From positions 28,181 through 92,180 of the IMG/VR virus record IMGVR_UViG_3300000547_000001: 64,000 nucleotides of DNA; one strand, given 5' to 3'. This DNA comes from a virus. Taxonomy: Duplodnaviria > Heunggongvirae > Uroviricota > Caudoviricetes. The notes beneath the pieces were generated by a model, which saw only the letters and a program-made list of their open reading frames with translations, was not told the DNA's origin and ran no database searches. Position 1 is the first letter of the stretch, and each line of letters starts with the position of its first letter. This document shows positions 11,958-51,327 of this stretch, in pieces. The position numbers and the translations under genes are program-made.

Positions 11958-11961
11958 AATA

Positions 11962-13916: not shown

Positions 13917-13936
13917 AGTGTTTTCTCCATTGCTTA

Positions 13937-13973
13937 TATTATTAATATAAGCCTTTTAAGAAGGAATGTCAAC
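13937..13973 (-). promoter_or_regulatory. T4-type early (sigma70-like) promoter
   Basis: Minus strand TTGACATTCCTTCTTAAAAGGCT-TATATT, then GGAG and ATG. Confidence 0.55.
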
Positions 13974-13976
13974 AGT

Positions 13977-35367: not shown

Positions 35368-35546
35368 TTATATCCACTTTTAAAGTTCATAGCTGTATCG
35401 TTTTCCTCTTTGAGCGCGTTAACAATACCATTATGAAGACCGACTACGACATGGTTTTGAACTGTGCCGGCAGGAAGTACTTTGATACCAATTTCAACGA
35501 TTTTTAAACCTACCACTTCACGAATATCTAAAAAAGTTTGTTTCAT
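35364..35546 (-). CDS. hypothetical protein (60 aa)
   Basis: ORF. Confidence 0.3.
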   Translation of the reverse strand: MKQTFLDIREVVGLKIVEIGIKVLPAGTVQNHVVVGLHNGIVNALKEENDTAMNFKSGYK

Positions 35547-40155: not shown

Positions 40156-40794
40156 TTATTTTCCAAATTGATTTTTCCAAGTTCTTATTCTACCTTTTAT
40201 CCATCCAGATGGAATAGGCTCATTTTTAGATATTTTTTTACTTATTATTCCATTATTAATCCACATAGAACCAAATGCTGGATGTTTATCACCTTGTCTC
40301 CTAGAAGCAAATTCTTTTCTTTTTTCTTCAGACCACTTATTTCCATAATTAGGATTATTTTTTCCTTTTACTGAATTTGGGTTAAGCGCTCTATGTTTTT
40401 TCATATCTATAGATCGTTTTTCTCTAAGCTTTTTAGCTTTTTCAACACCATGAATTTCTTCATAAGTTTTACCACTTAAAACCAAACCAGTTGATCTAAA
40501 CCCCCATACAGTAGATTTACATTTATTAAAAAATAAAGGATTTTTATCTACATTAAACTTTTCATGAAGCTGAGATTCGTGCAACATTGCATCTTTAGCT
40601 TCATGAAATACTTTTAATACTTTCTTTTTAAAGTATGTCTTTCCGTATTTTAAAATAGCCTCTTTGACATATTTAGAGCTACTCCAATAATTATCTTCCT
40701 TTGGCGGCTTTTTTGATTTTCGAAAACCATAATAATATTTTTCAACTGAATCAGGGTGTGTACATGTAATGCGATATGTATAATAGTAGATCAT
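40156..40794 (-). CDS. GIY-YIG homing endonuclease (Seg-like) with C-terminal NUMOD-type DNA-binding region
   Basis: 212 aa. N-terminal IYYYTYRITCT...KYYYGFRK (GIY-(10)-YIG). The C-terminal half is Lys-rich. Lies in an AT-rich, promoter-less island. Confidence 0.7.
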   Translation of the reverse strand: MIYYYTYRITCTHPDSVEKYYYGFRKSKKPPKEDNYWSSSKYVKEAILKYGKTYFKKKVLKVFHEAKDAMLHESQLHEKFNVDKNPLFFNKCKSTVWGFRSTGLVLSGKTYEEIHGVEKAKKLREKRSIDMKKHRALNPNSVKGKNNPNYGNKWSEEKRKEFASRRQGDKHPAFGSMWINNGIISKKISKNEPIPSGWIKGRIRTWKNQFGK

Positions 40795-40844: not shown

Positions 40845-41315
40845 TTATGAAAATTTATTTACTACATGATCTGCCCCAAATGAGCTAGCAAATGAATGCG
40901 GTTTAAGCTTAGGTTGCATGCCTGTCATACCTAATACATACCCAGCAGCTTCAGATGCGGCGCAGTTGGATCCATTTTTAGGATCTTGAGAAATATCAAG
41001 GTGTATCTCAATATCAAATTCATCAATGAAGGGTGCAAGCTCAGTATAAAGTTCACACACCTTAGCTACTTCATTCAACATTCGCATCTTTGGACGATCT
41101 TTTTTAAGATCATAATCAGGTTCGTACGAAATGTTTTTAAAGATACGACATCCATTTTTACCGTTCATGTGAATAATAGCAACAGTGGCATATCTACCAA
41201 ATGCACGACCTTTTTTAAAATAGCGAACACTATCACAACCAAGATACACCTTCGTAGATGGATCAAGAGTTGCTAGTAGTTCAACGATATCTTCAATTTG
41301 TTCTTGAGTAAACAT
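40845..41315 (-). CDS. hypothetical protein (156 aa)
   Basis: ORF with GGAG RBS behind the promoter at about 41332-41368. Confidence 0.5.
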   Translation of the reverse strand: MFTQEQIEDIVELLATLDPSTKVYLGCDSVRYFKKGRAFGRYATVAIIHMNGKNGCRIFKNISYEPDYDLKKDRPKMRMLNEVAKVCELYTELAPFIDEFDIEIHLDISQDPKNGSNCAASEAAGYVLGMTGMQPKLKPHSFASSFGADHVVNKFS

Positions 41316-41738: not shown

Positions 41739-41815
41739 TGGTGCCGGCACGAGGGATCGAACCCCGGACCTGATGCTTACAAGGCAACTGCTCTTCCAGC
41801 TGAGCTATACCGGCA
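41739..41815 (-). tRNA. tRNA-Thr(UGU), with a U-U mismatch in the anticodon stem
   Basis: Minus strand GCCGGTA-TA-GCTC-AGCTGGAA-GAGC-A-GTTGC-CTTGTAA-GCATC-AGGTC-CGGGG-TTCGATC-CCTCG-TGCCGGC-A-CCA. Confidence 0.5.
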
Positions 41816-41820
41816 AATTT

Positions 41821-41903
41821 TGGAGCGGATAGAGAGAATCGAACTCTTTACACACAGCTTGGAAGGCTGCTGATGGGACCACCCACCATTAAGTTCTACC
41901 CGC
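41821..41903 (-). tRNA. atypical tRNA-like gene (anticodon loop CTTCCAA = UCC/Gly, but an enlarged D region of about 24 nt)
   Basis: Acceptor GCGGGTA/TATCCGC, T-loop TTCGATT and encoded CCA are clear. The D region does not fold canonically. Confidence 0.3.
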
Positions 41904-42355
41904 ATAAGATTATTTATAGTGTGGGGAGGACTGGGGTTCACCTCCAACAAACGAATCAGATACCTTTTATCCTATACGTTTGAGCCTTACAGTAAGATGG
42001 TCAGTCTTACTTACTAGCACTTTGTGTCTCCACAATCTACTAGTGCCACCACAGCATGTAAGCCAAGTTAAGCCCTCTGATTCAGGGCTACATTCCTTGC
42101 ACCACATACTCTCATCCGTCGATGAGAATACTTTTAATACGGGGGTGCCCTATACCGCCACTACGAAGCCGGCATTTGATTTCTTCCTGAACCGACACCC
42201 AATCCAGGTATAGATTGTTACTACTAGATGATAGGCTCGCACAATCTAACCTTCCTATCACCACCTCAGCATTTAGAGGATTTAAATGGGATTCACTGAG
42301 TGAAGAGCCCTCTCGAAATCCTTGCGGACTCGGAAAGACCCCAATAAGGGGACCT

Positions 42356-42432
42356 TGGTCTGGCTAGAGAGACTCGAACTCCCGACATCTTGCTCCCAAA
42401 GCAAGCGCTCTACCATGCTGAGCTATAGCCAG
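42356..42432 (-). tRNA. tRNA-Pro(UGG)
   Basis: CTGGCTA-TA-GCTC-AGCATGGTA-GAGC-G-CTTGC-TTTGGGA-GCAAG-ATGTC-GGGAG-TTCGAGT-CTCTC-TAGCCAG-A-CCA, with C1-G72 as in bacterial tRNA-Pro. Confidence 0.8.
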
Positions 42433-42442
42433 TAACCTTTGT

Positions 42443-42479
42443 TATATTTAATCTAACATATTTATAATTGAATGTCAAC
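42443..42479 (-). promoter_or_regulatory. early promoter driving the tRNA-Pro to tRNA-Thr cluster
   Basis: Minus strand TTGACATTCAATTATAAATATGT-TAGATT about 35 nt before tRNA-Pro. Confidence 0.5.
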
Positions 42480-42693
42480 CAGTTTTTTTCAATTTTCTTT
42501 TCTTTTGCTTTTCTAATCTGCGTTTCGCTTTAAGTCTTTCACGAGCTTCTTTTTCTTCTTTAAAAGAATGGACTGACTTAATCAACTTAACTTCCTTACG
42601 TCGCTGTCGTGCAGCTCGGTCTTTTTGAATACGATCTTTTAAAGAAGGTTTTTCAATAATCGGTTCGTCAAGTTCAATATCGTGATCAAGCAT
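42475..42693 (-). CDS. highly basic small protein (72 aa)
   Basis: GAGGT RBS. RQRRKEVKLIK...KAKRRLEKQKKRKLKK. Confidence 0.4.
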   Translation of the reverse strand: MLDHDIELDEPIIEKPSLKDRIQKDRAARQRRKEVKLIKSVHSFKEEKEARERLKAKRRLEKQKKRKLKKTG

Positions 42694-42715
42694 AAGAATA
42701 CCTCATTTGTTAAAT

Positions 42716-42805
42716 TGGCGGATATGCCGTGAATCGAACACGATACCCTTTCAGGCACGATGGGTTTAGCAAACCCTCCTGAGCACCAACTCAGTTGTCA
42801 TATCC
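42716..42805 (-). tRNA. tRNA-Ser(GCU), class II
   Basis: GGATATG ... anticodon loop TTGCTAA, long variable arm, T-arm TCGTG-TTCGATT-CACGG, acceptor 3' CATATCC-G-CCA. Confidence 0.65.
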
Positions 42806-42946
42806 ATAAGTAAACCAATAACCATAATAATACAACAGCTAAAGAAATTAAAGCAGCAATTTCAGGATGTTTATCAGCTAAAGCTGTTATTAAGAAAGCA
42901 TATAGTGAAGTTGCTGCTGTTGTTACTATTAGTATTATAACACTTG

Positions 42947-43462
42947 TCACGGTGCAAATGGATCTTCATTACAAGAAGAAACAATCGCTGCGAATAGTGG
43001 ATCTGGTCTTTGTTCTTCAGGATAACCTTTGTATTGTACGTAATCATCTTGAAGTAAGAAAGCATCTGCTTCAAGTGCATTTTGGCATTGAACCATTTCA
43101 TGCTCACCATTCAAGTACTGTAGGTAATGTACCAACTCATGAAAAAGAACAGTCTCAATAAATCCTTCGTCTACCATATAAGGTCCAGACTCATCAGCAA
43201 TGAACACAGTATTTAAATTGTGATCGTAATAACCAGCTACTGCACATTGATCTTTTACTAATTCATAAAACCCAGGTGGATATACTGCTTGGCATAACTC
43301 ATCCATTGTTCGAATTTGAATGTATGGTAGCTTTTCGTTATTGTATTCGTATTTGCTATTCTCTTCGATATATTCAATCATATCGAGCATTACTTCATCT
43401 GTCGTAGCATATGCAGGAGTAATGAAAAAGAATAAAGCTGCAATAAGAGTAATGATTTTAGT
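42947..43462 (-). CDS. secreted HExxH zinc-metallopeptidase-like protein (start MTKIITLIAALFFF)
   Basis: Signal peptide, then ...TVLFHELVHYLQYL (HExxH). GGAGGTG RBS. A TATAAATA late promoter sits 25 nt upstream. Confidence 0.5.
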   Translation of the reverse strand, partial: TKIITLIAALFFFITPAYATTDEVMLDMIEYIEENSKYEYNNEKLPYIQIRTMDELCQAVYPPGFYELVKDQCAVAGYYDHNLNTVFIADESGPYMVDEGFIETVLFHELVHYLQYLNGEHEMVQCQNALEADAFLLQDDYVQYKGYPEEQRPDPLFAAIVSSCNEDPFAP

Positions 43463-43489
43463 CATAGTCACCTCCATGTTAACTATAAC

Positions 43490-43497
43490 TATTTATA
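43490..43497 (-). promoter_or_regulatory. T4-type late promoter TATAAATA inside the tRNA island
   Basis: Plus strand tatttata. Minus strand CCAATATAAATAGTTATAGTTAACATGGAGGTGACT-ATG. Confidence 0.5.
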
Positions 43498-43498
43498 T

Positions 43499-43588
43499 TG
43501 GCGGATACGGTAGGATTCGAACCTACGGTAGGCTTGCACCTACACTGCCTTTCCAGGGCAGCACAATCGACCACTCTGCCACGTATCC
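43499..43588 (-). tRNA. tRNA-Ser(GGA), class II
   Basis: Acceptor GGATACG/CGTATCC-G-CCA. Anticodon arm CTGCC-CTGGAAA-GGCAG. Long variable arm. T-arm GTAGG-TTCGAAT-CCTAC. Confidence 0.6.
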
Positions 43589-43590
43589 AA

Positions 43591-43665
43591 TGGTTGGGAG
43601 GGGTGGATTCGAACCACCGACCTGCTGATTCAAAGTCAGTTATTCTGCCGCTGAACTACCTCCCA
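43591..43665 (-). tRNA. tRNA-Gln(UUG)
   Basis: TGGGAGG-TA-GTTC-AGCGGCA-GAAT-A-ACTGA-CTTTGAA-TCAGC-AGGTC-GGTGG-TTCGAAT-CCACC-CCTCCCA-A-CCA. Confidence 0.7.
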
Positions 43666-43666
43666 A

Positions 43667-43742
43667 TGGTGCGAGATGACGGGTTCGAACCGCCGACCTG
43701 ATCGGTGTAAACGACCTGCTCTACCAACTGAGCTAATCTCGC
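43667..43742 (-). tRNA. tRNA-Val(UAC)
   Basis: GCGAGAT-TA-GCTC-AGTTGGTA-GAGC-A-GGTCG-TTTACAC-CGATC-AGGTC-GGCGG-TTCGAAC-CCGTC-ATCTCGC-A-CCA. Confidence 0.75.
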
Positions 43743-43746
43743 ATTA

Positions 43747-43941
43747 TTAATATGAACCTTTACCTTTACGAAACTTTTTCAAAGTAGTTTTCCATTTTTC
43801 AAAAAAGTGAGCTTGAACATCAAAGATACTACCTTCAGTCTCGAAGTTTTCTTTTGCATGTGTCAAAGCTTCTTTGTCACTCATTTTATCATCTTCAATG
43901 TGAACCGAATAAGTGACTGTGACATGAACTGTTCTAGGCAT
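43747..43941 (-). CDS. hypothetical protein (about 64 aa, start MPRTVHV)
   Basis: GGAG RBS. Lies between tRNA-Val and the promoter at about 43958-43994. Confidence 0.4.
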   Translation of the reverse strand: MPRTVHVTVTYSVHIEDDKMSDKEALTHAKENFETEGSIFDVQAHFFEKWKTTLKKFRKGKGSY

Positions 43942-43957
43942 ATGATTCTCCATTTGA

Positions 43958-43994
43958 TAGTAGTATCATATACTAACTAGAAAACAATGTCAAC
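43958..43994 (-). promoter_or_regulatory. early promoter
   Basis: Minus strand TTGACATTGTTTTCTAGTTAGTA-TATGAT. Confidence 0.5.
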
Positions 43995-44001
43995 TGAAAA
44001 A

Positions 44002-44076
44002 TGGCGACCCTACGGGGACTCTAACCCCGTTCTCCCGGTAGACAGCCGAGCGTAATACACCATATACCATAGGGCC
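44002..44076 (-). tRNA. tRNA-Asp(GUC)-like, possibly degenerate (T-loop TTAGAGT)
   Basis: Acceptor GGCCCTA/TAGGGTC-G-CCA. Anticodon arm CTCGG-CTGTCTA-CCGGG. Unusual T-loop and a weak D-stem. Confidence 0.4.
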
Positions 44077-44193
44077 AATATAAAATACCAAGGTCAGTCT
44101 TGTTGCAAATCCTGAGGAGGAATTTATCGGTTTTACCAGCAACGTTGTTGACTATAAAGTGAATGCCTCGTTTCCAGCCACACCCTTGGTAAC

Positions 44194-44268
44194 TTGGAGC
44201 GGAGAATGGGATTCGAACCCACGACCACTTGCTTGGCAAGCAAGAGCTCTACCTCTGAGCTACCTCCG
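44194..44268 (-). tRNA. tRNA-Gly(GCC)
   Basis: GCGGAGG-TA-GCTC-AGAGGTA-GAGC-T-CTTGC-TTGCCAA-GCAAG-TGGTC-GTGGG-TTCGAAT-CCCAT-TCTCCGC-T-CCA. Confidence 0.8.
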
Positions 44269-44341
44269 CATTAATTGAGTCACCGCGCGTTCTTATGGTT
44301 GCGTATTACTCGCTGTAAGCCTAGGCTAGCGACGGTGATTT

Positions 44342-44416
44342 TGGTGGAGCTACTCGGAATCGAACCGAGTGAACAGTCGCTGTGCAAGAGCAACCCGCTA
44401 CCCATAGACTAGCCCC
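44342..44416 (-). tRNA. tRNA-Ala(UGC) with the G3-U70 identity pair
   Basis: Acceptor GGGGCTA/TAGCTCC (G3-U70). Anticodon arm TTGC-T-CTTGCAC-A-GCGA (loop CTTGCAC). T-arm CTCGG-TTCGATT-CCGAG. The D-arm is compact. Confidence 0.6.
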
Positions 44417-44649
44417 AATTATGTCATTGTAAATCCTAGAATAAGGAACACGCTTACAATTACAGCATAAACAAATAAGAATGTTTTGAAGTTAGCGTAT
44501 CGTCTTATCCAATTATGTTTACTCATTATTGTGTTCCTTTATAATCCATGCTAGAAGGGACCTATTCTCATAGAGGGTAGATGATGCATAATCGCTTCGA
44601 CGAGTTAGGTCAAACTCTCAGCATTGATCAGTGGGATCATCTACTGTAT

Positions 44650-44740
44650 TGGCGGATAGGGTGGGAGTCGAACCCACACGAGACTGATTACTCCGAACGG
44701 TTTTCAAGACCGTGGCCACCGCCAGTTGGCTTGCCTATCC
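44650..44740 (-). tRNA. tRNA-Ser(UGA), class II
   Basis: GGATAGG ... ACGGT-CTTGAAA-ACCGT, long variable arm, GTGGG-TTCGACT-CCCAC-CCTATCC-G-CCA. Confidence 0.7.
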
Positions 44741-44836
44741 ATTTAATTGGTGCCAGTTTCTCCCTACTGGCAGGTCTCCTAGCTATCTCACTTCATACAA
44801 AGCCTGAAGTTTCACTATGTCTAGGACCTTGGCTAT

Positions 44837-44911
44837 TGGCCCCGGTGGAGGGAATCGAACCCCCTGCGCGCGGTTTTGGAGACCGCCGCTCTGCCAATGA
44901 GCTACACCGGA
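44837..44911 (-). tRNA. tRNA-Trp(CCA)
   Basis: TCCGGTG-TA-GCTC-ATTGGCA-GAGC-G-GCGGT-CTCCAAA-ACCGC-GCGCA-GGGGG-TTCGATT-CCCTC-CACCGGG-G-CCA. The anticodon arm matches E. coli tRNA-Trp. Confidence 0.7.
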
Positions 44912-45055
44912 ATTGTAATTTCCAGGACCCCCATTAGGACTCTTACCCCTGCGACGACTTAAGTCTCGATTGTTATATCAAATACGCCGAGGTCCCACAG
45001 CGTATGCAGCTTTCTCTCTACACAGGATGTCGACCTCTTGCATAGAGAATAATTT

Positions 45056-45139
45056 TGGTACGCCTGGAGGGACTCGAACCCCCACTCCGAAGAACTGCAT
45101 TCTAAGTGCAGCGTGTCTACCAAATTTCACCACAGGCGC
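45056..45139 (-). tRNA. tRNA-Leu(UAG), class II
   Basis: GCGCCTG ... CTGCA-CTTAGAA-TGCAG ... GGGGG-TTCGAGT-CCCTC-CAGGCGT-A-CCA. Confidence 0.7.
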
Positions 45140-45146
45140 ATTAACT

Positions 45147-45230
45147 TGGTGCTAGGTGCCGGAATCGAACCGACTCGCCCTTCCGGGAAAGCGTTATGAG
45201 CGCTCAGGCTCCCCATTTGCCATACCTAGC
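45147..45230 (-). tRNA. class II-shaped tRNA with a CAU anticodon (unusual; identity unresolved)
   Basis: GCTAGGT-AT-GGC-AAATGGGGA-GCC-T-GAGCG-CTCATAA-CGCTT-TCCCGGAAGGGCGA-GTCGG-TTCGATT-CCGGC-ACCTAGC-A-CCA. Has a 3-bp D-stem, a 14-nt variable arm and A8/U9. Confidence 0.4.
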
Positions 45231-45236
45231 ATCATC

Positions 45237-45313
45237 TGGTTGCGGGTGCCGGATTTGCACCGACGTCCTCCTGGTTATGAGCCAGGTGACCTTGTCTACT
45301 AGTCCAACCCGCT
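45237..45313 (-). tRNA. tRNA-Met(CAU), initiator-like (1:72 mismatch, R11:Y24)
   Basis: AGCGGGT-TG-GACT-AGTAGACAA-GGTC-A-CCTGG-CTCATAA-CCAGG-AGGAC-GTCGG-TGCAAAT-CCGGC-ACCCGCA-A-CCA. The 3' half is nearly identical to E. coli tRNA-fMet (AGGTCGTCGGTTCAAATCCGGCCCCCGCAACCA). Confidence 0.6.
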
Positions 45314-45888
45314 ATAATTTCCCACATATGGTCGATTTGAGCTCCTATTTCAGCCCGGATTACCATCGCTTGGATTACTACCGCTCGGTTGGTGTGGGCC
45401 TCAACCTAAATTCTATATCAGAGGCAACCGTCACATAAAATGCGCTGCCGCTACTTCAACCTCTGACTGTGTTTTGCCTTGCCTAAGAAGTATTAGACTA
45501 TCGGCTGGATACAATGATCCGAATGTTGTTGGCACTACCAACTTCTTATGGCGTCTTAGCTGCGCTTGCAGTACCATGTATTGGCTTTCCAGCTACCTTG
45601 GGAGTAGGACTTTCTCACTTGAACTTTACAACACGACAGGTTTACAGTTACCAAACATACCCTTCAGCTGGTAAGGCGTCCACATATGTTTATCGACAAT
45701 CTATTTCAAGCCACTACTAAGAACCACCAAAGCGTGTTTTCTATCCAGAAGATTGTCTATTCTGCAGATTTCCTGAGAGGTCGTGTCGACCAAGACTGGA
45801 AACTGTGTTCTTGGGTTGCGGCTCCGTGCCTATTAAGGGTGCCATACCCTCCCAAGCCAAACAAACATATCTGCTTGTTTGAGAAATT

Positions 45889-45965
45889 TGGCTCCCACCC
45901 CAGGATTCGAACCTGGAACTCAACGGTTAACAGCCGTTTGCCCCTGCCAATAGGGCCCCGTGGGA
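45889..45965 (-). tRNA. tRNA-Asn(GUU)
   Basis: TCCCACG ... AACGG-CTGTTAA-CCGTT-GAGTT-CCAGG-TTCGAAT-CCTGG-GGTGGGA-G-CCA (7:66 mismatch). Confidence 0.6.
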
Positions 45966-46132
45966 ATAAACTCTGTTTTCAGCTGCACTCTAAATCCGCC
46001 TTCTTTAAAACCGCTACGGTGTGCGCGAAATGAGCGCATGTGAAAATAGAGTTTATCTATTTCCATCTCTATCATCGAGTTACCTCTAAGAGAAATTCTA
46101 AATTTTCAAAGAGCGTGGTGATTAACACCTTG

Positions 46133-46169
46133 TATAATTAATATAGTCTATTTATTCGGTAATGTCAAC
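46133..46169 (-). promoter_or_regulatory. early promoter upstream of the leader RNA and tRNA-Asn
   Basis: Minus strand TTGACATTACCGAATAAATAGAC-TATATT. Confidence 0.5.
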
Positions 46170-46177
46170 TACTTTTT

Positions 46178-46603
46178 TTAAAATTTTCCACCAACACCAA
46201 CAAAATAAGATGTTGCACTACCACTCAGTGAATGGCCAACTTTACCATATGCCATAAGATCATCGTTAATGCCATATGCAAATCCAGCAGCAACAGCTTC
46301 TCGACTAGTTCCAGCGGCGTCTACGCCACCAATACCAACAGACCATGTCCAAGTATTCTCAGTAGGATCAAAAAGTTCCAGAGAACCAACAGTTGCAACA
46401 ACAGCATCTGTTTCTACCATTTTGCCATAATCAACAACACCATCTTTACCCGCAACACCTTGAGGACCAGTTGCTCCAGTATCACCTTGAGGACCTTGAA
46501 TTACTTTGTAGTCATCATCGTCGTCATGATCACGGTCACCGGCAAAAACCGGAAAAGCAAGCATACTTGTGACCATAGCAGTAGTAATCAAAATATTTTT
46601 CAT
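46178..46603 (-). CDS. secreted collagen-like repeat protein (start MKNILITTAM)
   Basis: Signal peptide, then DRDHDDDDDYKVIQ, then a G-x-y triple-helix motif GPQGDTGATGPQGVAGKDG, then a C-terminal Gly-rich beta-like domain. Confidence 0.55.
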   Translation of the reverse strand: MKNILITTAMVTSMLAFPVFAGDRDHDDDDDYKVIQGPQGDTGATGPQGVAGKDGVVDYGKMVETDAVVATVGSLELFDPTENTWTWSVGIGGVDAAGTSREAVAAGFAYGINDDLMAYGKVGHSLSGSATSYFVGVGGKF

Positions 46604-46626
46604 AGTATATCCTTTCATTTTTACAT

Positions 46627-46700
46627 TGGTCCCGATGGAAGGATTCGAGCCTTCTCTAACTAATCCACAATTAGTCGTGCTACCATTACACTACATCGGA
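46627..46700 (-). tRNA. tRNA-His(GUG), with no encoded G-1 and with A73
   Basis: TCCGATG-TA-GTGT-AATGGTA-GCAC-G-ACTAA-TTGTGGA-TTAGT-TAGAG-AAGGC-TCGAATC-CTTCC-CATCGGG-A-CCA. Confidence 0.7.
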
Positions 46701-46705
46701 GTGAT

Positions 46706-46782
46706 TGGTTGTCCTAGAGTGACTCGAACACTCGACCTCAGAGTTATCAGCTCTGCGCTCTTACCACCTGAGCTATAGGACA
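46706..46782 (-). tRNA. tRNA-Ile(GAU)
   Basis: TGTCCTA-TA-GCTC-AGGTGGTAA-GAGC-G-CAGAG-CTGATAA-CTCTG-AGGTC-GAGTG-TTCGAGT-CACTC-TAGGACA-A-CCA. Confidence 0.8.
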
Positions 46783-46787
46783 GTATT

Positions 46788-46864
46788 TGGAGTTGGTGAC
46801 AGGACTTGAACCTGCATAATCTCGGATTTGCAATCCGGAGCCTAACCATTCGAGCCACACCAAC
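46788..46864 (-). tRNA. tRNA-Cys(GCA)
   Basis: GTTGGTG ... CCGGA-TTGCAAA-TCCGA ... GCAGG-TTCAAGT-CCTGT-CACCAAC-T-CCA. Confidence 0.6.
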
Positions 46865-46961
46865 ATTACTTAGAAGATATACACCTTGCTGGGTCCGCTA
46901 TACTGTCGTACCGGCCGGATACCGTATAGTCGTTGTGTCTCAGTGTATATCATCAAAATAA

Positions 46962-47039
46962 TGGAGGACCCTCTGGGATTCGAACCCAGGACCTTCCGAT
47001 TAAAAGTCGGATGCTCTAAACCAGCTGAGCTAAGGGTCC
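46962..47039 (-). tRNA. tRNA-Lys(UUU)
   Basis: GGACCCT-TA-GCTC-AGCTGGTTTA-GAGC-A-TCCGA-CTTTTAA-TCGGA-AGGTC-CTGGG-TTCGAAT-CCCAG-AGGGTCC-T-CCA. Confidence 0.8.
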
Positions 47040-47172
47040 TTGATGTTCTTTGCGCAATGCAACTTTATCTGCTCTGCGCAAAGCTTTCTTTGTTTTCCCA
47101 TGCGCACCTGATTTTCGTTTGAACATCGCGACTGCATGGGGATCACGAGGTTTGTGAAGTTTTTGTTTCATT
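47017..47172 (-). CDS. small basic ORF (51 aa). Its 3' end is encoded by tRNA-Lys sequence, so the call is doubtful.
   Basis: GGAG RBS plus MKQKLHKPRDPHAVAMFKRKSGAHGKTKKALRRADKVALRKEHQ..., but it reads through into the tRNA. Confidence 0.2.
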
Positions 47173-47192
47173 TTTTTCTCCGTTATTTTGTA

Positions 47193-47229
47193 TAGTGTTA
47201 ATCTATACTAATTCGAAACATATGTCAAC
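47193..47229 (-). promoter_or_regulatory. early promoter
   Basis: Minus strand TTGACATATGTTTCGAATTAGTA-TAGATT. Confidence 0.5.
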
Positions 47230-47246
47230 AACTTTGTGAAAAAAAT

Positions 47247-47324
47247 TGGTGCATCAGGATGGATTCGAACCACCGACACCATGGGCTTCAACCATGTGCT
47301 ACTACCAGACTGAGCTACTGATGC
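47247..47324 (-). tRNA. tRNA-Phe(GAA)
   Basis: GCATCAG ... CATGG-TTGAAGC-CCATG ... GGTGG-TTCGAAT-CCATC-CTGATGC-A-CCA. Confidence 0.65.
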
Positions 47325-47331
47325 ATTATAT

Positions 47332-47407
47332 TGGAGCTCCCGGCAGGACTCGAACCCGCAACACCTAGATTCGTAATCTAGTGCTCTTCCAATTGAGCTA
47401 CGGAAGC
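47332..47407 (-). tRNA. tRNA-Arg(ACG)
   Basis: GCTTCCG-TA-GCTC-AATTGGAA-GAGC-A-CTAGA-TTACGAA-TCTAG-GTGTT-GCGGG-TTCGAGT-CCTGC-CGGGAGC-T-CCA. Confidence 0.8.
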
Positions 47408-47411
47408 GTTT

Positions 47412-47657
47412 TTATTTTTTGACCATATGAGGTCTGAATTTTTTAATTCTTTTTATATCAGCTCTATGAAAAGAAATTTTTGGTTCTGAACCGTATTTTT
47501 CTTTGTATTCTTTTTTAACTTCTTTGGCAAATTTTCCAAGTTTATTTTTTGTTTGAAGATTTCCGCCAGTGGCCCATTCATTATGATCATCACCATCAAC
47601 AGTAATATACCAAAGATCGTACTTTTGTTCTGCAATAAGCTCTTTAAAAGTTTTCAT
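47412..47657 (-). CDS. hypothetical basic protein (81 aa) in an AT-rich insertion flanked by a duplicated tRNA-Arg 5' segment
   Basis: ORF. The flanks TTGAGCTACGGAAGC (47393-47407) and TTGAGCTACGGAAGC (47730-47744) are direct repeats. Confidence 0.4.
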   Translation of the reverse strand: MKTFKELIAEQKYDLWYITVDGDDHNEWATGGNLQTKNKLGKFAKEVKKEYKEKYGSEPKISFHRADIKRIKKFRPHMVKK

Positions 47658-47723
47658 TTCTTAGCATCCTTGCGTTGTTTCTTAGTAAAAAATATTTATA
47701 CTAATTGGCTTATTCCAGTTGAG

Positions 47724-47933
47724 CTACGGAAGCAATTGCTTATTCCATTGATGAAGCGACTTAAATGTAGCACCAGTAAAATTTGGTACTGGGCCTGCAG
47801 CAGGTCCTTCATCGTCTTTAGTGTACCACCACCAAGATTCATCACCTTGTTTAAAGGCTTCGGTATAACCACCGTTTAATTCAGGATCAATGTTAAATTT
47901 AAACGTAAAGTATTCTGCTTGCTTATCGTTCAT
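47724..47933 (-). CDS. hypothetical protein (about 69 aa, start MNDKQ)
   Basis: GGAG RBS. ORF. Confidence 0.35.
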   Translation of the reverse strand: MNDKQAEYFTFKFNIDPELNGGYTEAFKQGDESWWWYTKDDEGPAAGPVPNFTGATFKSLHQWNKQLLP

Positions 47934-47950
47934 AATATACTCCATTGTTT

Positions 47951-48030
47951 TGGTACACCCAGGGGGATTCGAACCCTCCGTCCTCCCGAGCGAAAATCGG
48001 GCGTCCTTGTCCTATCTAGACCATGGGTGC
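47951..48030 (-). tRNA. tRNA-Glu(UUC), with an enlarged D region
   Basis: GCACCCA ... CCCGA-TTTTCGC-TCGGG-AGGAC-GGAGG-TTCGAAT-CCCCC-TGGGTGT-A-CCA. Confidence 0.55.
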
Positions 48031-48166
48031 ATAACTCTACTTTTACAATAGGTAGCGAGGGGATTTGCACCGAGTCCCTAAACTCTTTTCCTCTTTTCAA
48101 CAACTAGGGAATTGTTTACTTTGCACCTTGCCTACCTAATCTAAAAATAGAGTTTATTTACTGAGG

Positions 48167-48250
48167 CTGGGCTGGATTCGAACCACCTTCATATACCTAG
48201 CTTACTGCGCACTCGTCTAGGTTTGCTTTAACCCATTCTAAGCTACAGCC
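48167..48250 (-). other. tRNA-like element (canonical D-arm and T-loop; anticodon region replaced by a 6-bp stem with a 16-nt loop)
   Basis: GGGGCTG-TA-GCTT-AGAATGGGTTA-AAGC ... ACCTAG-ACGAGTGCGCAGTAAG-CTAGGT ... GGTGG-TTCGAAT-CCAGC. The acceptor 3' strand pairs poorly and there is no CCA. Confidence 0.3.
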
Positions 48251-48259
48251 CCATAATTT

Positions 48260-48330
48260 TGGTAGTACCTGATAGAATTGAACCATCCCTAAAGGCTTAT
48301 GAGACCTTCGTCTAGACCACTAGAGGTACT
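48260..48330 (-). tRNA. compact tRNA with a CAU anticodon (Met or Ile2 candidate; 71 nt, miniature D-arm)
   Basis: AGTACCT-CTAGTGGTCTAGACG-AAGGT-CTCATAA-GCCTT-TAGG-GATGG-TTCAATT-CTATC-AGGTACT-A-CCA. Confidence 0.4.
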
Positions 48331-48339
48331 GTATTTGGT

Positions 48340-48472
48340 GTGCAGAGGTGGATTCGAACCACCATCGCAGGATTACTTTCTCAAGTTATTGTAGCGCTAC
48401 TTTACCTTGATACTTGTAAAGCCTACATTCTCCGCCCTCCTGAGCGGCGACTTTACCATTTGTCCATCTACA
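48340..48472 (-). other. tRNA-like element: canonical T-arm, acceptor and CCA, but about 90 nt of non-cloverleaf sequence between the acceptor strands
   Basis: 3' end GGTGG-TTCGAAT-CCACC-TCTGCAC-A-CCA. A candidate 5' strand GTGTAGA lies 133 nt upstream. Internal hairpin CCGCTC-AGGA-GGGCGG. Confidence 0.25.
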
Positions 48473-48479
48473 CAAATTT

Positions 48480-48564
48480 TGGTGGGGAGGTGCCGAGTCG
48501 AACGGCACGCTTTTACACTCCGGGTTTACAATCCTTCTGTGGCTACCCGCCACTGAACCTCCCC
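48480..48564 (-). tRNA. tRNA-Tyr(GUA)-like class II tRNA (anticodon loop TTGTAAA; anticodon stem poorly paired)
   Basis: Acceptor GGGGAGG/CCTCCCC-A-CCA. T-arm TGCCG-TTCGACT-CGGCA. 85 nt. The D-arm is a 5-bp stem GTGGC/GCCAC. Confidence 0.4.
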
Positions 48565-48940
48565 AAATATTGGTTTGACTGCCGGATTCGAACCGACTAT
48601 CTCCCGACCTACATCGGGCGTGTTACCACGGGCAAAAAGGAGTCTGCAGCCTCACAAATTGTCCTTACCCTCTCACCAAGTCAATCTCTGTTTTCAGCTG
48701 CTAATGTGTAGGAGTCGAACCTACTGGGCGGACCGCCGTCCTATTTGCTACACCAAGTATAAAGAAGGAATCGAACCTTCGCGAAGCCACCAAGACCAAG
48801 GAGGGAATCGAACCCTCTCACCTTACCAAGCATTAGCATGTGAAAACAGAGGCTCTGTTTTCAACTGCACTGCATCTAGCCGACCACGGATTTGAACCGC
48901 TCCCAGGTTCGCTGGTCTCTCCCATCTCGCAAGATTGAGA
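48560..48940 (-). repeat. array of degenerate tRNA-like / T-arm hairpin units without complete cloverleaves
   Basis: Successive minus-strand units ...CTTGGT ... GAGGG-TTCGATT-CCCTC, ...CTTGGT ... GAAGG-TTCGATT-CCTTC, ...CTTGGT ... GTAGG-TTCGACT-CCTAC, GTCGG-TTCGAAT-CCGGC and GCGG-TTCAAAT-CCGT, interspersed with AAAACAGAG ... CTCTGTTTT hairpins. Confidence 0.4.
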
Positions 48941-49057
48941 AATGCGTATCAGCTTACAGTGCATGTGAAAACAGAGCTTTCTCTGTTTCCAGTCTATTAT
49001 CGAGTTACCTCTAAGACCATAGCCAAATTTTCAAAGAACGTGGTGATTAACACCTTA

Positions 49058-49094
49058 TATAAACAATCTACACTATACTCAAACCAATGTCAAC
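49058..49094 (-). promoter_or_regulatory. early promoter at the head of the 48.0-49.0 kb tRNA sub-cluster
   Basis: Minus strand TTGACATTGGTTTGAGTATAGTG-TAGATT. Confidence 0.5.
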
Positions 49095-49107
49095 AACTTT
49101 TTTCACT

Positions 49108-49191
49108 TTTTACTCAATAAAACCATAAATCATTAAAATAATTAGAACAAAAATAAATACGACAGAACCTAAAGCAATATATCCAGCAAGC
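49108..49191 (-). CDS. small TM peptide (27 aa)
   Basis: MLAGYIALGSVVFIFVLIILMIYGFIE with a GGAG RBS. Immediately after a terminator. Confidence 0.25.
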
Positions 49192-49217
49192 ATTTCGTTA
49201 CTCCAATAAAAAACCCT

Positions 49218-49250
49218 CCGAGCTTCTCAGCTGGAGGGTTGAAGACCTTA
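49218..49250 (-). terminator. rho-independent terminator
   Basis: Minus strand CCCTCCAGCTGAGAAGCTCGGAGGG followed by TTTTTTATTGG. Confidence 0.55.
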
Positions 49251-49382
49251 ACTTTCGTTACGATTAGTCTCGAGCACCCTCCGTGCGCATATCCCAACGG
49301 ACGCTATAAAAGCGTTCGCACATAATGGGATTATTTTTGAGATGAATCGAAAGCATTAGTTTCCTCGTTTGTTTCTTACTAA

Positions 49383-49390
49383 TATTTATA
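49383..49390 (-). promoter_or_regulatory. T4-type late promoter TATAAATA upstream of a 30-aa ORF
   Basis: Minus strand GTGTATAAATATTAGTAAGAAACAAACGAGGAAACTA-ATG (MLSIHLKNNPIMCERFYSVRWDMRTEGARD). A terminator follows. Confidence 0.35.
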
Positions 49391-49427
49391 CACAAACTTT
49401 ACAAGTTTTGGAAAAAAGTTAAAAAAA

Positions 49428-49505
49428 TGGTGGTAAGGGTGGGACTCGAACCCACGACGTCGACCCTTATAAGGAGCCCGCTCTCACCTACTGAGCTACC
49501 CTACC
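49428..49505 (-). tRNA. tRNA with a UAU anticodon (Ile/AUA decoder candidate)
   Basis: GGTAGGG-TA-GCTC-AGTAGGTGA-GAGC-G-GGCTC-CTTATAA-GGGTC-GACGTC-GTGGG-TTCGAGT-CCCAC-CCTTACC-A-CCA. The anticodon stem has two G-U pairs. Confidence 0.45.
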
Positions 49506-49840
49506 ATATATCTTTCTGCATTACCAGAACTGATGAGTTCTTCGTTAAGATTCTTACCGCCATCATAAAAGATAGTAGCAAGATAACGACCATACTTTCC
49601 TGTTGCATCACGCTGAGTCATGACTTGAATGTCTGTGCCAACAGGAATTTTTTCATTTACAAAGTCTTTAGCGATTAAACCAAAAGGTCGTTCTTCACCA
49701 CGAATTTCAGGTGTATCAATACCATATAGTCTAAGCTTTTGATCGAAAATCCAAGTATTGAAACCAAGATCAATATTAGCACGAATTGTATCACCATCAT
49801 AGATGTTAGTAACAATCGCATTATAGAAATATAGTTTCAA
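49496..49840 (-). CDS. staphylococcal-nuclease-like (thermonuclease/SNase fold) protein
   Basis: 114 aa. IYDGDTIRANI ... LRLYGIDTPEIRGEERPFG, the SNase motifs (DGDT ... R ... GID.PE). Its stop overlaps the 5' end of the UAU tRNA. Confidence 0.6.
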   Translation of the reverse strand: MKLYFYNAIVTNIYDGDTIRANIDLGFNTWIFDQKLRLYGIDTPEIRGEERPFGLIAKDFVNEKIPVGTDIQVMTQRDATGKYGRYLATIFYDGGKNLNEELISSGNAERYMVG

Positions 49841-49859
49841 TACTTGAATCCTTTTATTT

Positions 49860-49943
49860 TGGTGCCCTCACCCGGACTTGAACCGGGAAGCCGAAGCGGC
49901 AGATTTTAAGTCTGCTGTGTTTACCTAATTTCACCATGAGGGC
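49860..49943 (-). tRNA. tRNA-Leu(UAA), class II
   Basis: GCCCTCA-TG-GTGA-AATTAGGTAAA-CAC-A-GCAGA-CTTAAAA-TCTGC-CGCTTCGGCTTC-CCGGT-TCAAGTC-CGGG-TGAGGGC-A-CCA. Confidence 0.7.
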
Positions 49944-49946
49944 ATT

Positions 49947-50021
49947 TGGCGCTCCCTCCAGGATTCGAACCCGGGACCTGAGGTTTAGAAGACCCCTGCT
50001 CTTCCGCTGAGCTAAGGAAGC
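49947..50021 (-). tRNA. tRNA-Arg(UCU)
   Basis: GCTTCCT-TA-GCTC-AGCGGAA-GAGC-A-GGGGT-CTTCTAA-ACCTC-AGGTC-CCGGG-TTCGAAT-CCTGG-AGGGAGC-G-CCA. Confidence 0.8.
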
Positions 50022-50877: not shown

Positions 50878-50914
50878 TAGTAGTAATATAAGTTATGCGA
50901 AAGGTAATGTCAAC
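50878..50914 (-). promoter_or_regulatory. early promoter
   Basis: Minus strand TTGACATTACCTTTCGCATAACT-TATATT. Confidence 0.5.
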
Positions 50915-51327
50915 TACTTTTTTAAGTTTTTTACATGTTTTTCATGAATTTTGCAACCAATGAAAGCATTGTAGTAATCATCGTCGAGTAGCACTTCACG
51001 ATCAAACTGTTCTTTTGCTTCAAGATAACTCATCTCACCAAGAGTATTACAAAGATGTAATATTTCTCTTTTAAAGTTATTGCGACCGAGTTCTTCTACA
51101 AGAGACTTTACTTCTTCACTCGAGCCATAATAGTCCATCCAATCAGACTCTTTGATTACGGTGCGCTTACGAGTCTTTCCTTTAAGAGGAGGTCTTCGCG
51201 TTTTTGATTGAAACTTCTTTTTACCAACGTACTTCTTACCGTTTGATAAATCGGTGATGATATAGACAAAACCAATATGGCTGCCTATATCATCACTCGT
51301 GAACTCTTTACCTTTATAATACCACAT
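50914..51327 (-). CDS. small GIY-YIG (URI) domain nuclease-family protein
   Basis: 137 aa. GFVYIITDLSNGKKYVGKK (GIY ... YIG), followed by Arg/Lys-rich and Glu-containing segments. No DNA-binding extension. Confidence 0.5.
   Translation of the reverse strand: MWYYKGKEFTSDDIGSHIGFVYIITDLSNGKKYVGKKKFQSKTRRPPLKGKTRKRTVIKESDWMDYYGSSEEVKSLVEELGRNNFKREILHLCNTLGEMSYLEAKEQFDREVLLDDDYYNAFIGCKIHEKHVKNLKK

Follow-up and report, generated by a model that had tools for sequence, protein, structure and literature searches.

A near-complete tRNA island with unusual tRNA architectures and conserved tRNA-derived RNAs in a marine T4-like phage

Introduction

Why would a phage encode almost every transfer RNA (tRNA) needed to read its own genes, and can members of such a set that depart from the canonical cloverleaf still be functional? 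Both questions are raised by a 64,000-nucleotide (nt) stretch of tailed-phage DNA (Caudoviricetes; IMG/VR record IMGVR_UViG_3300000547_000001, positions 28,181 to 92,180), referred to here as the window, in which a tRNA island occupies positions 41739-50021 of the minus strand. An initial annotation had described about 27 tRNAs at this locus, forming a nearly full decoding set that is interleaved with protein genes and driven by several early promoters. On the evidence of gene presence, predicted folds, conservation, covariation and promoter motifs, we report 28 tRNA genes with which the phage very probably makes a near-complete tRNA pool from early transcripts, keeping its translation independent of the host. 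Phage tRNA islands, near-complete sets in aquatic T4-like phages, tRNA-His lacking an encoded G-1 and the manA RNA are already known. New are tRNA architectures with comparative support, four decoders missed by standard tools, and unclassified conserved RNAs that are tRNA-derived or closed by a helix.

Results and Discussion

An array of 28 tRNA genes

Default ARAGORN called 24 tRNAs between 41739 and 50021, all of them minus-strand cloverleaves with an encoded CCA, and none in 50 dinucleotide-preserving shuffles of the island; strand, coordinates and anticodons agreed with those first described. The Rfam gathering threshold was passed by 22 of the 24, leaving tRNA-Ala and a class II-shaped CAU tRNA as ARAGORN-only calls. 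A custom scan for a T arm joined to a 7-bp acceptor stem and NCCA returned 27 elements in the island versus 1 in 50 shuffles. Four further CCA-ending decoders of non-canonical shape were recognized: Gly(UCC), Ser(GCU), a compact CAU tRNA and a Tyr(GUA)-like element. All four have the acceptor, T arm and loop expected of a tRNA together with aberrant D arms or stems. Three had been proposed before, and in each of these a T arm accompanies a 7-bp acceptor stem that ends in NCCA; Ser(GCU) was not among the members named by the initial annotation and is possibly new. The total is 28 genes with readable anticodons, all with encoded CCA, on one strand within 8.3 kb of a phage genome, as in other phage tRNA clusters. 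The earlier count of about 27 was therefore close for decoders, with at least three tRNA-like RNAs that are not decoders lying beside them.

The anticodons are Phe GAA; Leu UAA and UAG; Ile GAU and UAU; three CAU; Val UAC; Ser GGA, UGA and GCU; Pro UGG; Thr UGU; Ala UGC; Tyr GUA; His GUG; Gln UUG; Asn GUU; Lys UUU; Asp GUC; Glu UUC; Cys GCA; Trp CCA; Arg ACG and UCU; and Gly GCC and UCC. This set is near-minimal, with mostly U34 or G34 plus ACG, CCA and the three CAU. With standard wobble, the 28 tRNAs would read every sense codon but CGG and serve all 20 amino acids if the Tyr-like element decodes, and to that extent the description of a nearly full decoding set holds. Members missed by standard annotators include the sole candidate decoders for Tyr, Ser (AGY) and Gly (GGR). 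Across 59 long open reading frames (ORFs) of the window, comprising 13,749 codons, A or T is the last base of 70% of codons, and CGG accounts for 3% of Arg codons; thus, the tRNA set fits the phage's own usage.

Promoters, transcripts and interleaved genes

The pattern TTGACA-N16-18-TANANT occurs 23 times in the window versus 1.09 expected, with 21 of the 23 matches on the minus strand. The island itself contains five promoter-like sites, four of which match this pattern and the fifth of which emerged from a consensus scan; two more flank it. The presence of several promoters was thus confirmed, while their designation as early is suggested by the consensus matches. Two of the island promoters are followed by an 84-nt leader (AUAAGG-hairpin-CGYUCUUUGA), for which an exact-pattern scan of IMG/VR found nothing. 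The same arrangement around a hairpin of other sequence was seen by eye at two related loci (L083 ~790-980 and L085 ~2595-2720). Also by eye, a conserved motif, AGAGCCAAUCACAUAYGG, was found directly 5' of tRNA or tRNA-like starts (L083 1515-1533 and 1703-1720; L085 3533-3552; and, in diverged form, window ~45519-45535), where it may be a leader or a processing signal. Protein genes are indeed interleaved as small ORFs among the tRNAs. An SNase-like nuclease, whose reading frame runs to a stop codon within the 5' end of tRNA-Ile(UAU), is the only confident family assignment among them.

In the model that we favor, at least five strong sigma-70-type promoters, presumably used by host RNA polymerase early in infection, would yield polycistronic precursors in which tRNAs are joined to small ORFs and to other structured RNAs. 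From these, 28 tRNAs with CCA already encoded would be released by RNase P and 3' trimming enzymes of the host, and the phage's own set would sustain translation against codon mismatch, host tRNA loss or tRNA-cutting host nucleases.

Source phage and related islands

Across the island, the DNA is 100% identical to a 151,847-bp metagenome contig in ENA, and a contig from a different sample matches it equally; recovery of the same sequence in two independent assemblies makes an assembly artefact unlikely. Genes for gp32, a T4-type RNA ligase 1 and a class II ribonucleotide reductase (RNR) are present, and the best protein matches are to pelagiphage HTVC008M, Methylophilales phage Melnitz and Sinorhizobium phiM12, which together indicate a T4-like marine myovirus. 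Near and distant BLAST searches of GenBank phages with the island, two long non-coding stretches and tRNA-His returned single-tRNA matches only.

A search for relatives by RNR gave 80 loci at 78-89% identity. Among 20 IMG/VR loci scanned for tRNAs (RNR ~79-89% identical), the corresponding position holds 0-2 tRNAs, tRNA-Arg(UCU) is the only one in common with the island, and no help for covariation was obtained. The paucity of tRNAs in these closest RNR relatives argues that the island is accessory and not essential to the lineage. Related islands were instead located with the 172-aa HExxH protein encoded among the tRNAs as a marker. This DUF6647-like protein is widespread in marine T4-like phages, and tRNA islands are absent from most loci that encode it. 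The islands found contain, by ARAGORN, 13 tRNAs (L083), 20 tRNAs (L085/L086), 20 tRNAs (L088, the most syntenic with the window) and 29 tRNAs (L089/L090). Several are accompanied by a permuted transfer-messenger RNA (tmRNA), namely those of L083 and L085/L086.

Three CAU tRNAs with distinct predicted roles

The initiator-like tRNA(CAU) has A1xA72, A11:U24, G2-C71, C3-G70, A73, G30-C40 and G31-C39 in its ARAGORN fold. Initiators also have three consecutive G-C pairs at 29-31:39-41; in the phage tRNA, however, 29:41 is U-A. Its T loop, UGCAAAU, has G where U55 is expected, an oddity shared with L088, and homologues in L088 and L089 have U1xA72. Apart from the 1:72 mismatch, its R11:Y24 pair, A73, G2-C71 and C3-G70 are listed bacterial initiator determinants (PMC9976931). 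Nucleotides 22/31-77 are 86-89% identical to E. coli tRNA-Met genes that occur in four copies per genome, a copy number that marks them as initiators. The proposal of an initiator-like CAU tRNA with a 1:72 mismatch, R11:Y24 and an E. coli-like 3' part is upheld, the resemblance covering the 3' two thirds, and this gene most likely encodes the initiator.

The second, compact CAU tRNA, 71 nt long as first described, has a D arm of 4 bp with a UGGU loop set directly against the acceptor stem and an A1-U72 pair. Homologues occur at L083 2764-2836 (CAU) and L088 2458-2549 (UAU), the YGGU D loop is shared, and 11 of 20 predicted pairs in this family are compensatory. The L088 copy combines its UAU anticodon with the same AGGU/GCCU anticodon stem, and A1-U72 is listed as an antideterminant against methionyl-tRNA synthetase (MetRS) (PMC9976931). 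On both grounds, this family is probably an Ile2-type tRNA that reads AUA as Ile. The separate UAU-anticodon tRNA at 49428-49505 was also recovered by ARAGORN.

The third CAU tRNA was said to have class II architecture, a claim that the data bear out. ARAGORN and an unconstrained minimum free energy (MFE) fold agree on a 7-bp acceptor stem, a 3-bp D stem, a canonical CUCAUAA loop, a normal T arm, A73-CCA and a 14-nt variable region forming a CCC-GGAA-GGG hairpin. It thus has the stem-loop variable arm of class II tRNAs but a CAU anticodon in place of one for Leu, Ser or Tyr. An 88-nt homologue at L083 6712-6799 has the same CCCGGAAGGG hairpin; between the two, 12 of 20 stem pairs show compensatory changes, 3 differ on one side only, 4 are unchanged and 1 no longer pairs. 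BLAST of both against E. coli genomes gave no match, and global identity to other tRNAs did not reveal their ancestry. Five IMG/VR matches to an exact signature of this tRNA were rejected as chance-like, with no tRNA called at those positions.

By elimination of the initiator and Ile2-type CAU tRNAs, this gene is most likely the elongator Met tRNA of the window with an acquired class II variable arm. Such a role is plausible, as MetRS needs no more than a CAU anticodon and charges any tRNA carrying one efficiently (PMC9976931). Class II-length tRNAs recur in related phages with Trp (87 nt), Ile UAU (92-94 nt), Lys, Thr and Asn anticodons, and the CAU tRNA is one instance of a wider habit among related marine phages. 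Loci of class II length include L083 3807-3893; L088 2458-2549; L099/L100/L151 ~13658-14009; L089 2597-2683 and 11260-11345; L108 2863-2951; and L166 753-852. The converse also occurs, several Leu-anticodon tRNAs of relatives being just 76-78 nt long.

A tRNA-Leu body that has acquired a CAU anticodon would look similar, and because leucyl-tRNA synthetase ignores the anticodon such a molecule could be charged with Leu, inserting it at AUG or serving another non-standard role. The long variable arm, 3-bp D stem and A73 would suit this origin, as would the D arm of the L083 homologue (UGGCGGAAUUGGU...ACGC), which we take to be like that of E. coli tRNA-Leu. A covariance model of another island RNA (TLS138, below) also scores the class II CAU tRNA at 29 bits, beside class II, Leu-like tRNAs. 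Leu is not singled out by sequence, however, as the best global identity is ~0.69 to several isotypes, and the efficient charging of CAU tRNAs by MetRS argues against Leu identity. Moreover, the window has no other elongator Met tRNA, relatives place class II arms on Trp, Ile, Asn, Lys and Thr anticodons, their class II Trp and Asn tRNAs carry the expected discriminator G73, and Leu at AUG would harm every phage protein. We therefore judge a Leu-charged tRNA highly improbable and retain the elongator Met assignment.

Other unusual tRNAs

The enlarged D regions noted earlier in Gly(UCC), tRNA-Glu and the Tyr-like element were all present as described. Allo-tRNAs and bacterial selenocysteine tRNA (tRNA-Sec), reportedly described by Mukai and co-workers in 2017, have an 8/4, 9/3 or 8/5 branch and a long D stem. 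Gly(UCC) resembles them in an acceptor/T split of 9/3 in its MFE fold (8/4, or 7/5 with a mismatch, is also possible) and a 7-bp D stem with a 4-nt loop, as does Ser(GCU) in a 6-bp D stem. Unlike them, Gly(UCC) has no long variable arm, its anticodon is UCC, and it scores 35.7 bits with the Rfam tRNA-Sec model versus a threshold of 47; none of the 28 anticodons is UCA. Its G1-C72, C2-G71, U73, C35 and C36 are bacterial Gly identity elements (PMC9976931). No homologue of Gly(UCC) was found in the compared islands. Ser(GCU) has, beyond its 6-bp D stem with a 4-nt UGGU loop, a class II variable arm, G73 and CCA; a hand-read alignment with a homologue in L138 shows compensatory changes in the D stem and at 28:42. 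tRNA-Ser(UGA) has tRNA-Sec as its best Rfam model, yet its anticodon is UGA and it adopts an ordinary 7/5 fold. The G3·U70 pair reported for tRNA-Ala was seen in its ARAGORN fold and also in the L085 homologue (4982-5057); the gene has no Rfam tRNA match, only one to the tmRNA model at 25.7 bits.

The Tyr-like element has GUA in a 7-nt loop, a good acceptor stem, T arm and CCA, together with an anticodon stem of two pairs and an extended D hairpin. It has no Rfam tRNA match at E<=5 and no homologue was found; ARAGORN detects no tRNA-Tyr in any related island. L083 8219-8301 was considered as a homologue and rejected, since it parses better as Arg(ACG), leaving the Tyr-like tRNA of the window without comparative support.

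Relatives contain further oddities. CCA-ending tRNAs with hairpin insertions of 30-60 nt in the anticodon loop, too short for group I introns, occur at L083 1216-1339, 4791-4908 and 4916-5053 and at L085 8169-8295; a connection with the RNA ligase of the phage would be purely speculative. Others have CUA (amber-reading), UCA (opal-reading) or four-base CAAG anticodons (L088 4288-4363; L089 11013-11084 and 8376-8451) and could be suppressor or recoding tRNAs.

Conserved tRNA-like RNAs and cassettes

TLS138 is a 138-nt CCA-ending cloverleaf without an anticodon loop. The 'anticodon' arm consists of a 5-6-bp stem with (C/G)AGGAG(G) as its cap, and the variable arm measures ~58 nt. The loop is purine-rich, with a Shine-Dalgarno-like AGGAG in place of the anticodon. 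A homologue at L083 4063-4195 keeps 32 of 32 predicted pairs, 7 of them compensatory and none broken. A covariance model built from these two copies found no further members, the next-best matches being class II tRNAs, and an exact-pattern scan of IMG/VR for the TLS138 core found nothing. The tRNA-like element at 48160-48252 may be a pseudogene or another RNA.

Conserved structured RNAs make up much of the island 'spacer'. In cassettes A, G and F the closing helix pairs 5'-CUGUUUUCA-CA-UGC with GCA-GN-UGAAAACAG-3', and the flanks of cassette H are a variant, CUCUAUUUUUA / UAAAAGUAGAG. Every copy checked forms at least 10 of the 11 outer pairs, and cassette folding z-scores were -3.3, -5.2 and -3.95. 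The helix is also found at L083 976-1134 and L085 2720-2815 and 3195-3318, the outer pairs covary, and in L085 as in the window a cassette directly precedes tRNA-Asn. Cassettes share flanks around differing RNA cargoes and stand at the head of tRNA operons. The core of cassette H is conserved at L083 1407-1468, where by eye it has its own closing helix. Cassette F, with a closing helix of roughly 20 bp, aligns with L083 976-1134 in an RNAalifold structure of 39 pairs, 9 of them compensatory. Both have three T-arm hairpins with an invariant UUCGAUU loop on differing stems, each preceded by YUGGU (by eye). The closing helices may serve as RNase III-type processing stalks, and the triple-T-arm cargo may mimic tRNA elbows.

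So many departures from canonical form could mean that only ~24 canonical genes work. In a rapidly turning-over array, the Tyr-like, Gly(UCC), compact CAU, Ser(GCU) and class II CAU tRNAs would then be pseudogenes in decay and leftovers of recombination, as would the T-arm arrays and the tRNA-like elements that bear insertions. Decay would account for the two-pair anticodon stem of the Tyr-like gene, for an element with a 16-nt loop and no CCA (48160-48252), for a duplicated 21-nt fragment of a tRNA-Arg 5' end at 47713-47733, for the failure of standard tools to find aberrant members, and for absence of the island from the closest RNR relatives. We nonetheless consider it unlikely. The class II CAU, compact CAU/UAU and Ser(GCU) tRNAs, TLS138 and the triple-T-arm cassette all have homologues in phages that have diverged, where many two-sided changes have left the predicted helices intact and broken pairs are few or absent, and NCCA ends are intact in the aberrant members listed. 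Furthermore, without the Gly(UCC), Ser(GCU) and Tyr decoders, GGR, AGY and UAY would be lost, yet these codons are common in the phage. Decay may describe 48160-48252 and perhaps the Tyr-like gene; for the others it is contradicted by covariation.

The Arg fragment is a minus-strand copy, 95% identical, of the 5' end of tRNA-Arg(ACG), 326 nt upstream of the real gene. It lies at the end of a 73-aa ORF and brackets an 81-aa ORF, and resembles the scar left by an insertion or recombination event in the array.

tRNA-His and the probable host

In tRNA-His, base -1 is C, the 1:72 pair is U·G, the discriminator is A73 and the D loop is 7 nt, so that no encoded G-1 had been overlooked. Homologues in L083 and L085 have U or A at -1 and A73; G72 is conserved across the three phage tRNAs, with C-G and AxG at 1:72 in the two relatives. 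Lack of a templated G-1 together with A73 is a derived trait of a clade of Rhodobacteraceae, Rhizobiales, Caulobacterales and Hyphomonadaceae and of most SAR11 (PMC3937112). tRNA-His of this alphaproteobacterial group has conserved G1-U72, C3-G70 and a 9-nt D loop with U20a, and in Caulobacter a U72C change cuts charging 91-fold (PMC3064791). The window tRNA shares the absent G-1, A73, C3-G70 and the GUG anticodon but differs in having U1·G72 in place of G1-U72 and a 7-nt D loop in place of one of 9 nt with U20a. The label 'alphaproteobacterial-type' is therefore apt for the missing G-1 and A73, and not for the 1:72 pair and the D loop.

ARAGORN also identified a permuted alpha-type tmRNA in the window at 11928-12378 on the minus strand, with the tag ANINAEPVALAA; permuted tmRNAs with similar tags are found at L083 16613-17038, L085 18018-18419 and L086 12530-12928. 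A tRNA-His with A73 and no G-1, in combination with this tmRNA, points to a host among alphaproteobacteria that have a G-1-independent histidyl-tRNA synthetase (HisRS).

Role of the island and comparison with known systems

Phage T4 encodes a tRNA cluster of 8 tRNAs and two stable RNAs, and T5 and KVP40 also have clustered tRNAs. The island resembles these clusters in its single strand, early region, small ORFs, extra stable RNAs and accompanying RNA ligase 1. It differs from that of T4 in its size (28 versus 8), near completeness and several members off the canonical cloverleaf, and in TLS138 and inverted-repeat cassettes for which no Rfam similarity was detected. Near-complete sets are known from cyanophages S-CRM01, S-CBWM1, S-PM2 and S-CREM1 (PMC9964418), which are likewise aquatic T4-like myoviruses with >20 tRNAs serving nearly all amino acids and, in some, manA. 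In contrast to a member of that group, the window matches GenBank phages at the DNA level only in single tRNAs, and its alpha-type tmRNA and tRNA-His without G-1 argue for an alphaproteobacterial rather than a cyanobacterial host.

Four points count against a near-complete tRNA supply of the phage's own: coverage of 20 amino acids hangs on the weak Tyr-like member, with its two anticodon-stem pairs and no homologue found; 4 of 28 tRNAs are missed by standard detectors; phages with RNR 80-89% identical have 0-2 tRNAs at the island position; and the phage tRNA-His has G72, not the U72 that matters for Caulobacter HisRS. We still regard such a supply as very probable, with expression, processing, charging identities, host and benefit as predictions of the model.

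The main role of the island could alternatively be counter-defence, with altered tRNAs replacing host tRNAs cut by anticodon nucleases or toxins and escaping recognition themselves. In that case TLS138 and the triple-T-arm RNA would serve as decoys or sponges that draw off these enzymes, or factors that bind tRNA elbows. In T4, RNA ligase 1 and a kinase constitute the tRNA-repair response to PrrC. The same phage DNA encodes a T4-type RNA ligase 1 (29938-31125, minus strand, PF09511 E=3e-30) and a P-loop AAA_33 kinase (35546-36115, minus strand), parts of a possible tRNA-repair pathway. Odd D arms, variable arms and loops recur across related phages, non-decoding mimics are conserved, and the lack of an ARAGORN-detectable tRNA-Tyr in any related island would also be in line with altered tRNAs. 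Against this, the AAA_33 kinase is at most a candidate polynucleotide kinase, and for this phage neither a defence system of the host nor a nuclease target nor any decoy activity is known. Counter-defence is also compatible with codon supply and does not exclude it. As the main role we entertain it tentatively, behind the supply of tRNAs for translation.

A broader idea is that the island is an RNA toolkit and more than a codon supply. Here, hitherto undescribed classes of tRNA-derived RNA shared by marine T4-like phages, comprising class II Met (CAU) and the Ile (UAU) and Trp tRNAs of relatives, Sec-like D-arm tRNAs, TLS138 and the triple-T-arm RNA, would act as nuclease-resistant substitutes or decoys for tRNA-binding host factors and defences, freed from conserved double-stranded CUGUUUUCA/UGAAAACAG stalks. 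We consider this rather doubtful.

Further structured RNAs and neighboring genes

The coordinates of island features are collected in Table 1. A full-length manA RNA motif was found only by a 461-nt Rfam scan, having been missed by whole-window and 8.8-kb scans; because long scans filtered it out, other known families could be hidden elsewhere in the window. The usual context of manA is the 5' untranslated region of a protein gene (Weinberg et al. 2010, PMC2864571). The window copy has an above-threshold score and occurs in a marine T4-like phage, as expected, but it stands upstream of two tRNAs, Gly(UCC) and Thr, which are followed by a convergent ORF, and not upstream of a protein gene.

The spacer RNA at 44912-45055 forms 34 pairs, 3 of them compensatory. 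The 575-nt stretch that follows tRNA-Asn contains a conserved core (45551-45608), with a counterpart at the same position in L085. That this stretch might be a reduced RNase P RNA, given its GAGAAAGUCC-like strings, was rejected: a 601-nt scan at E<=10 matched none of the RNase P models of Rfam, and a folding z-score of just -1.18 weakens the idea further. GTDB scans with the TLS138 core and the post-Asn core gave nothing, or one match in a Clostridiaceae metagenome-assembled genome that looks coding.

A PF04308 'RNaseH_like' protein is encoded just downstream of the island (40845-41315, minus strand) and likewise downstream of the islands in the related phages, at L083 14901-15380, L085 13468-13986, L089 18331-18813 and L139 ~2122-2438. 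Likely homing endonuclease genes flank the island at 50914-51327 (minus), 51793-52389 (plus) and 40156-40794 (minus). The first has a SegE GIY-YIG Pfam match on the source contig, and the latter two have HNH-like and GIY-YIG-like motifs by eye only. Heme oxygenase and ferredoxin-dependent bilin reductase genes adjoin gp32 at L083 17218-18424 and L085 18389-19598.

Table 1. Features of the tRNA island, in window coordinates
Feature	Position	Strand	Evidence
tRNA-Thr(UGU)	41739-41814	-	ARAGORN; Rfam 61.2 bits
Gly(UCC) tRNA, non-canonical	41821-41903	-	ARAGORN -ps90; Rfam tRNA-Sec 35.7 bits, sub-threshold
manA RNA motif RF01745, full-length	41915-42126	-	65.5 bits vs gathering score 55.2, E=1.4e-16
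Unclassified RNA 'X'	42127-42355	-	Core ~42130-42240 conserved in L139; no Rfam match
tRNA-Pro(UGG)	42356-42432	-	ARAGORN; Rfam 66.1 bits
Sigma-70-like promoter	42450-42478	-	Pattern match, -35 at 42478
Ser(GCU) tRNA, non-canonical	42716-42805	-	Custom scan, fold; homologue in L138
172-aa HExxH protein	42947-43465	-	Sub-threshold DUF6647 match
tRNA-Ser(GGA)	43499-43588	-	ARAGORN; Rfam 58.3 bits
tRNA-Gln(UUG)	43591-43665	-	ARAGORN; Rfam 68 bits
tRNA-Val(UAC)	43667-43742	-	ARAGORN; Rfam 65.7 bits
Sigma-70-like promoter TTGACA-17-TATGAT	43965-43993	-	Consensus scan
tRNA-Asp(GUC)	44002-44076	-	ARAGORN; Rfam 46.9 bits
Spacer RNA conserved in L083	44077-44194	-	74% identity; folding z-score -0.39
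tRNA-Gly(GCC)	44195-44269	-	ARAGORN; Rfam 70.4 bits
tRNA-Ala(UGC), G3·U70, reduced D arm	44342-44416	-	ARAGORN
Conserved spacer RNA, 9-bp closing helix	44545-44649	-	88% identical to L088
tRNA-Ser(UGA)	44650-44740	-	ARAGORN; best Rfam model tRNA-Sec 51.9 bits
Conserved spacer RNA	44741-44836	-	81% identical to L140 4091-4179; 4 compensatory pairs
tRNA-Trp(CCA)	44837-44911	-	ARAGORN; Rfam 55.7 bits
Conserved spacer RNA upstream of tRNA-Trp	44912-45055	-	75% identical to L085 4043-4175
tRNA-Leu(UAG), class II	45056-45139	-	ARAGORN; Rfam 56.5 bits
Class II-shaped tRNA(CAU), A73	45147-45230	-	ARAGORN; MFE cloverleaf
Initiator-like tRNA(CAU)	45237-45313	-	ARAGORN; Rfam 51.7 bits
575-nt stretch after tRNA-Asn, no convincing ORF	45314-45888	-	Folding z-score -1.18; no Rfam match
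tRNA-Asn(GUU)	45889-45965	-	ARAGORN; Rfam 43.4 bits
Cassette A, inverted-repeat-bounded, directly 5' of tRNA-Asn	45971-46051	-	
Leader repeat copy 2, promoter-proximal	46068-46151	-	Repeat family shared with copy 1
Sigma-70-like promoter	46140-46168	-	Pattern match, -35 at 46168
tRNA-His(GUG)	46627-46700	-	ARAGORN; Rfam 60.3 bits
tRNA-Ile(GAU)	46706-46782	-	ARAGORN; Rfam 68.5 bits
tRNA-Cys(GCA)	46788-46864	-	ARAGORN; Rfam 44.6 bits
Spacer RNA, 10-bp closing helix	46865-46961	-	Z-score -3.11; no Rfam match
tRNA-Lys(UUU)	46962-47039	-	ARAGORN; Rfam 74 bits
Sigma-70-like promoter	47200-47228	-	Pattern match, -35 at 47228
tRNA-Phe(GAA)	47247-47324	-	ARAGORN; Rfam 56.7 bits
tRNA-Arg(ACG)	47332-47407	-	ARAGORN; Rfam 63.7 bits
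tRNA-Glu(UUC), enlarged D loop	47951-48030	-	ARAGORN; Rfam 48.3 bits
Cassette H, long closing helix, cassette-like flanks	~48033-48154	-	Z-score -3.95
tRNA-like element, 16-nt 'anticodon' loop, no CCA	48160-48252	-	Fold
Compact 71-nt tRNA(CAU)	48260-48330	-	Rfam tRNA 28.7 bits (gathering score 29)
TLS138, 138-nt CCA-ending cloverleaf without anticodon loop	48336-48473	-	Custom scan, fold
Tyr(GUA)-like tRNA, weakest member	48480-48564	-	Custom scan, fold
CCA-ending tRNA-like RNA, 6-bp acceptor stem, T arm, large insertions	48571-48685	-	Custom scan, fold; no homologue found
Cassette F, inverted-repeat-bounded, three T-arm hairpins	48686-48851	-	
Cassette G, inverted-repeat-bounded	48853-48976	-	
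Leader repeat copy 1, promoter-proximal	48993-49076	-	83% identical to 46068-46151
Sigma-70-like promoter TTGACA-17-TAGATT	49065-49093	-	Pattern match, -35 at 49093
Intrinsic-terminator-like hairpin and T run, after small ORF	49207-49238	-	
tRNA-Ile(UAU)	49428-49505	-	ARAGORN; Rfam 57.4 bits
114-aa SNase-like endonuclease ORF	49496-49840	-	Pfam PF00565 E=3.5e-13; PHROG 452
tRNA-Leu(UAA), class II	49860-49943	-	ARAGORN; Rfam 58.7 bits
tRNA-Arg(UCU)	49947-50021	-	ARAGORN; Rfam 63.2 bits

Conclusions

The island illustrates the extent to which tRNA architecture can drift while conservation and covariation argue for function: a class II arm is found on a Met or Ile anticodon, D arms of 4 bp with 4 nt or of 6-7 bp occur, and the acceptor/T split can be 9/3. 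Since standard annotators miss 4 of the 28 genes, tRNA complements of metagenomic phages are probably undercounted. TLS138, the triple-T-arm cassette and the stalk-like flanks, along with a manA RNA placed before tRNAs, are candidate new RNA families or contexts that may be linked to tRNA processing or to phage-host conflict over tRNAs. Finally, the combination of a tRNA-His without G-1 and an alpha-type tmRNA provides a testable host prediction for an uncultured phage group.

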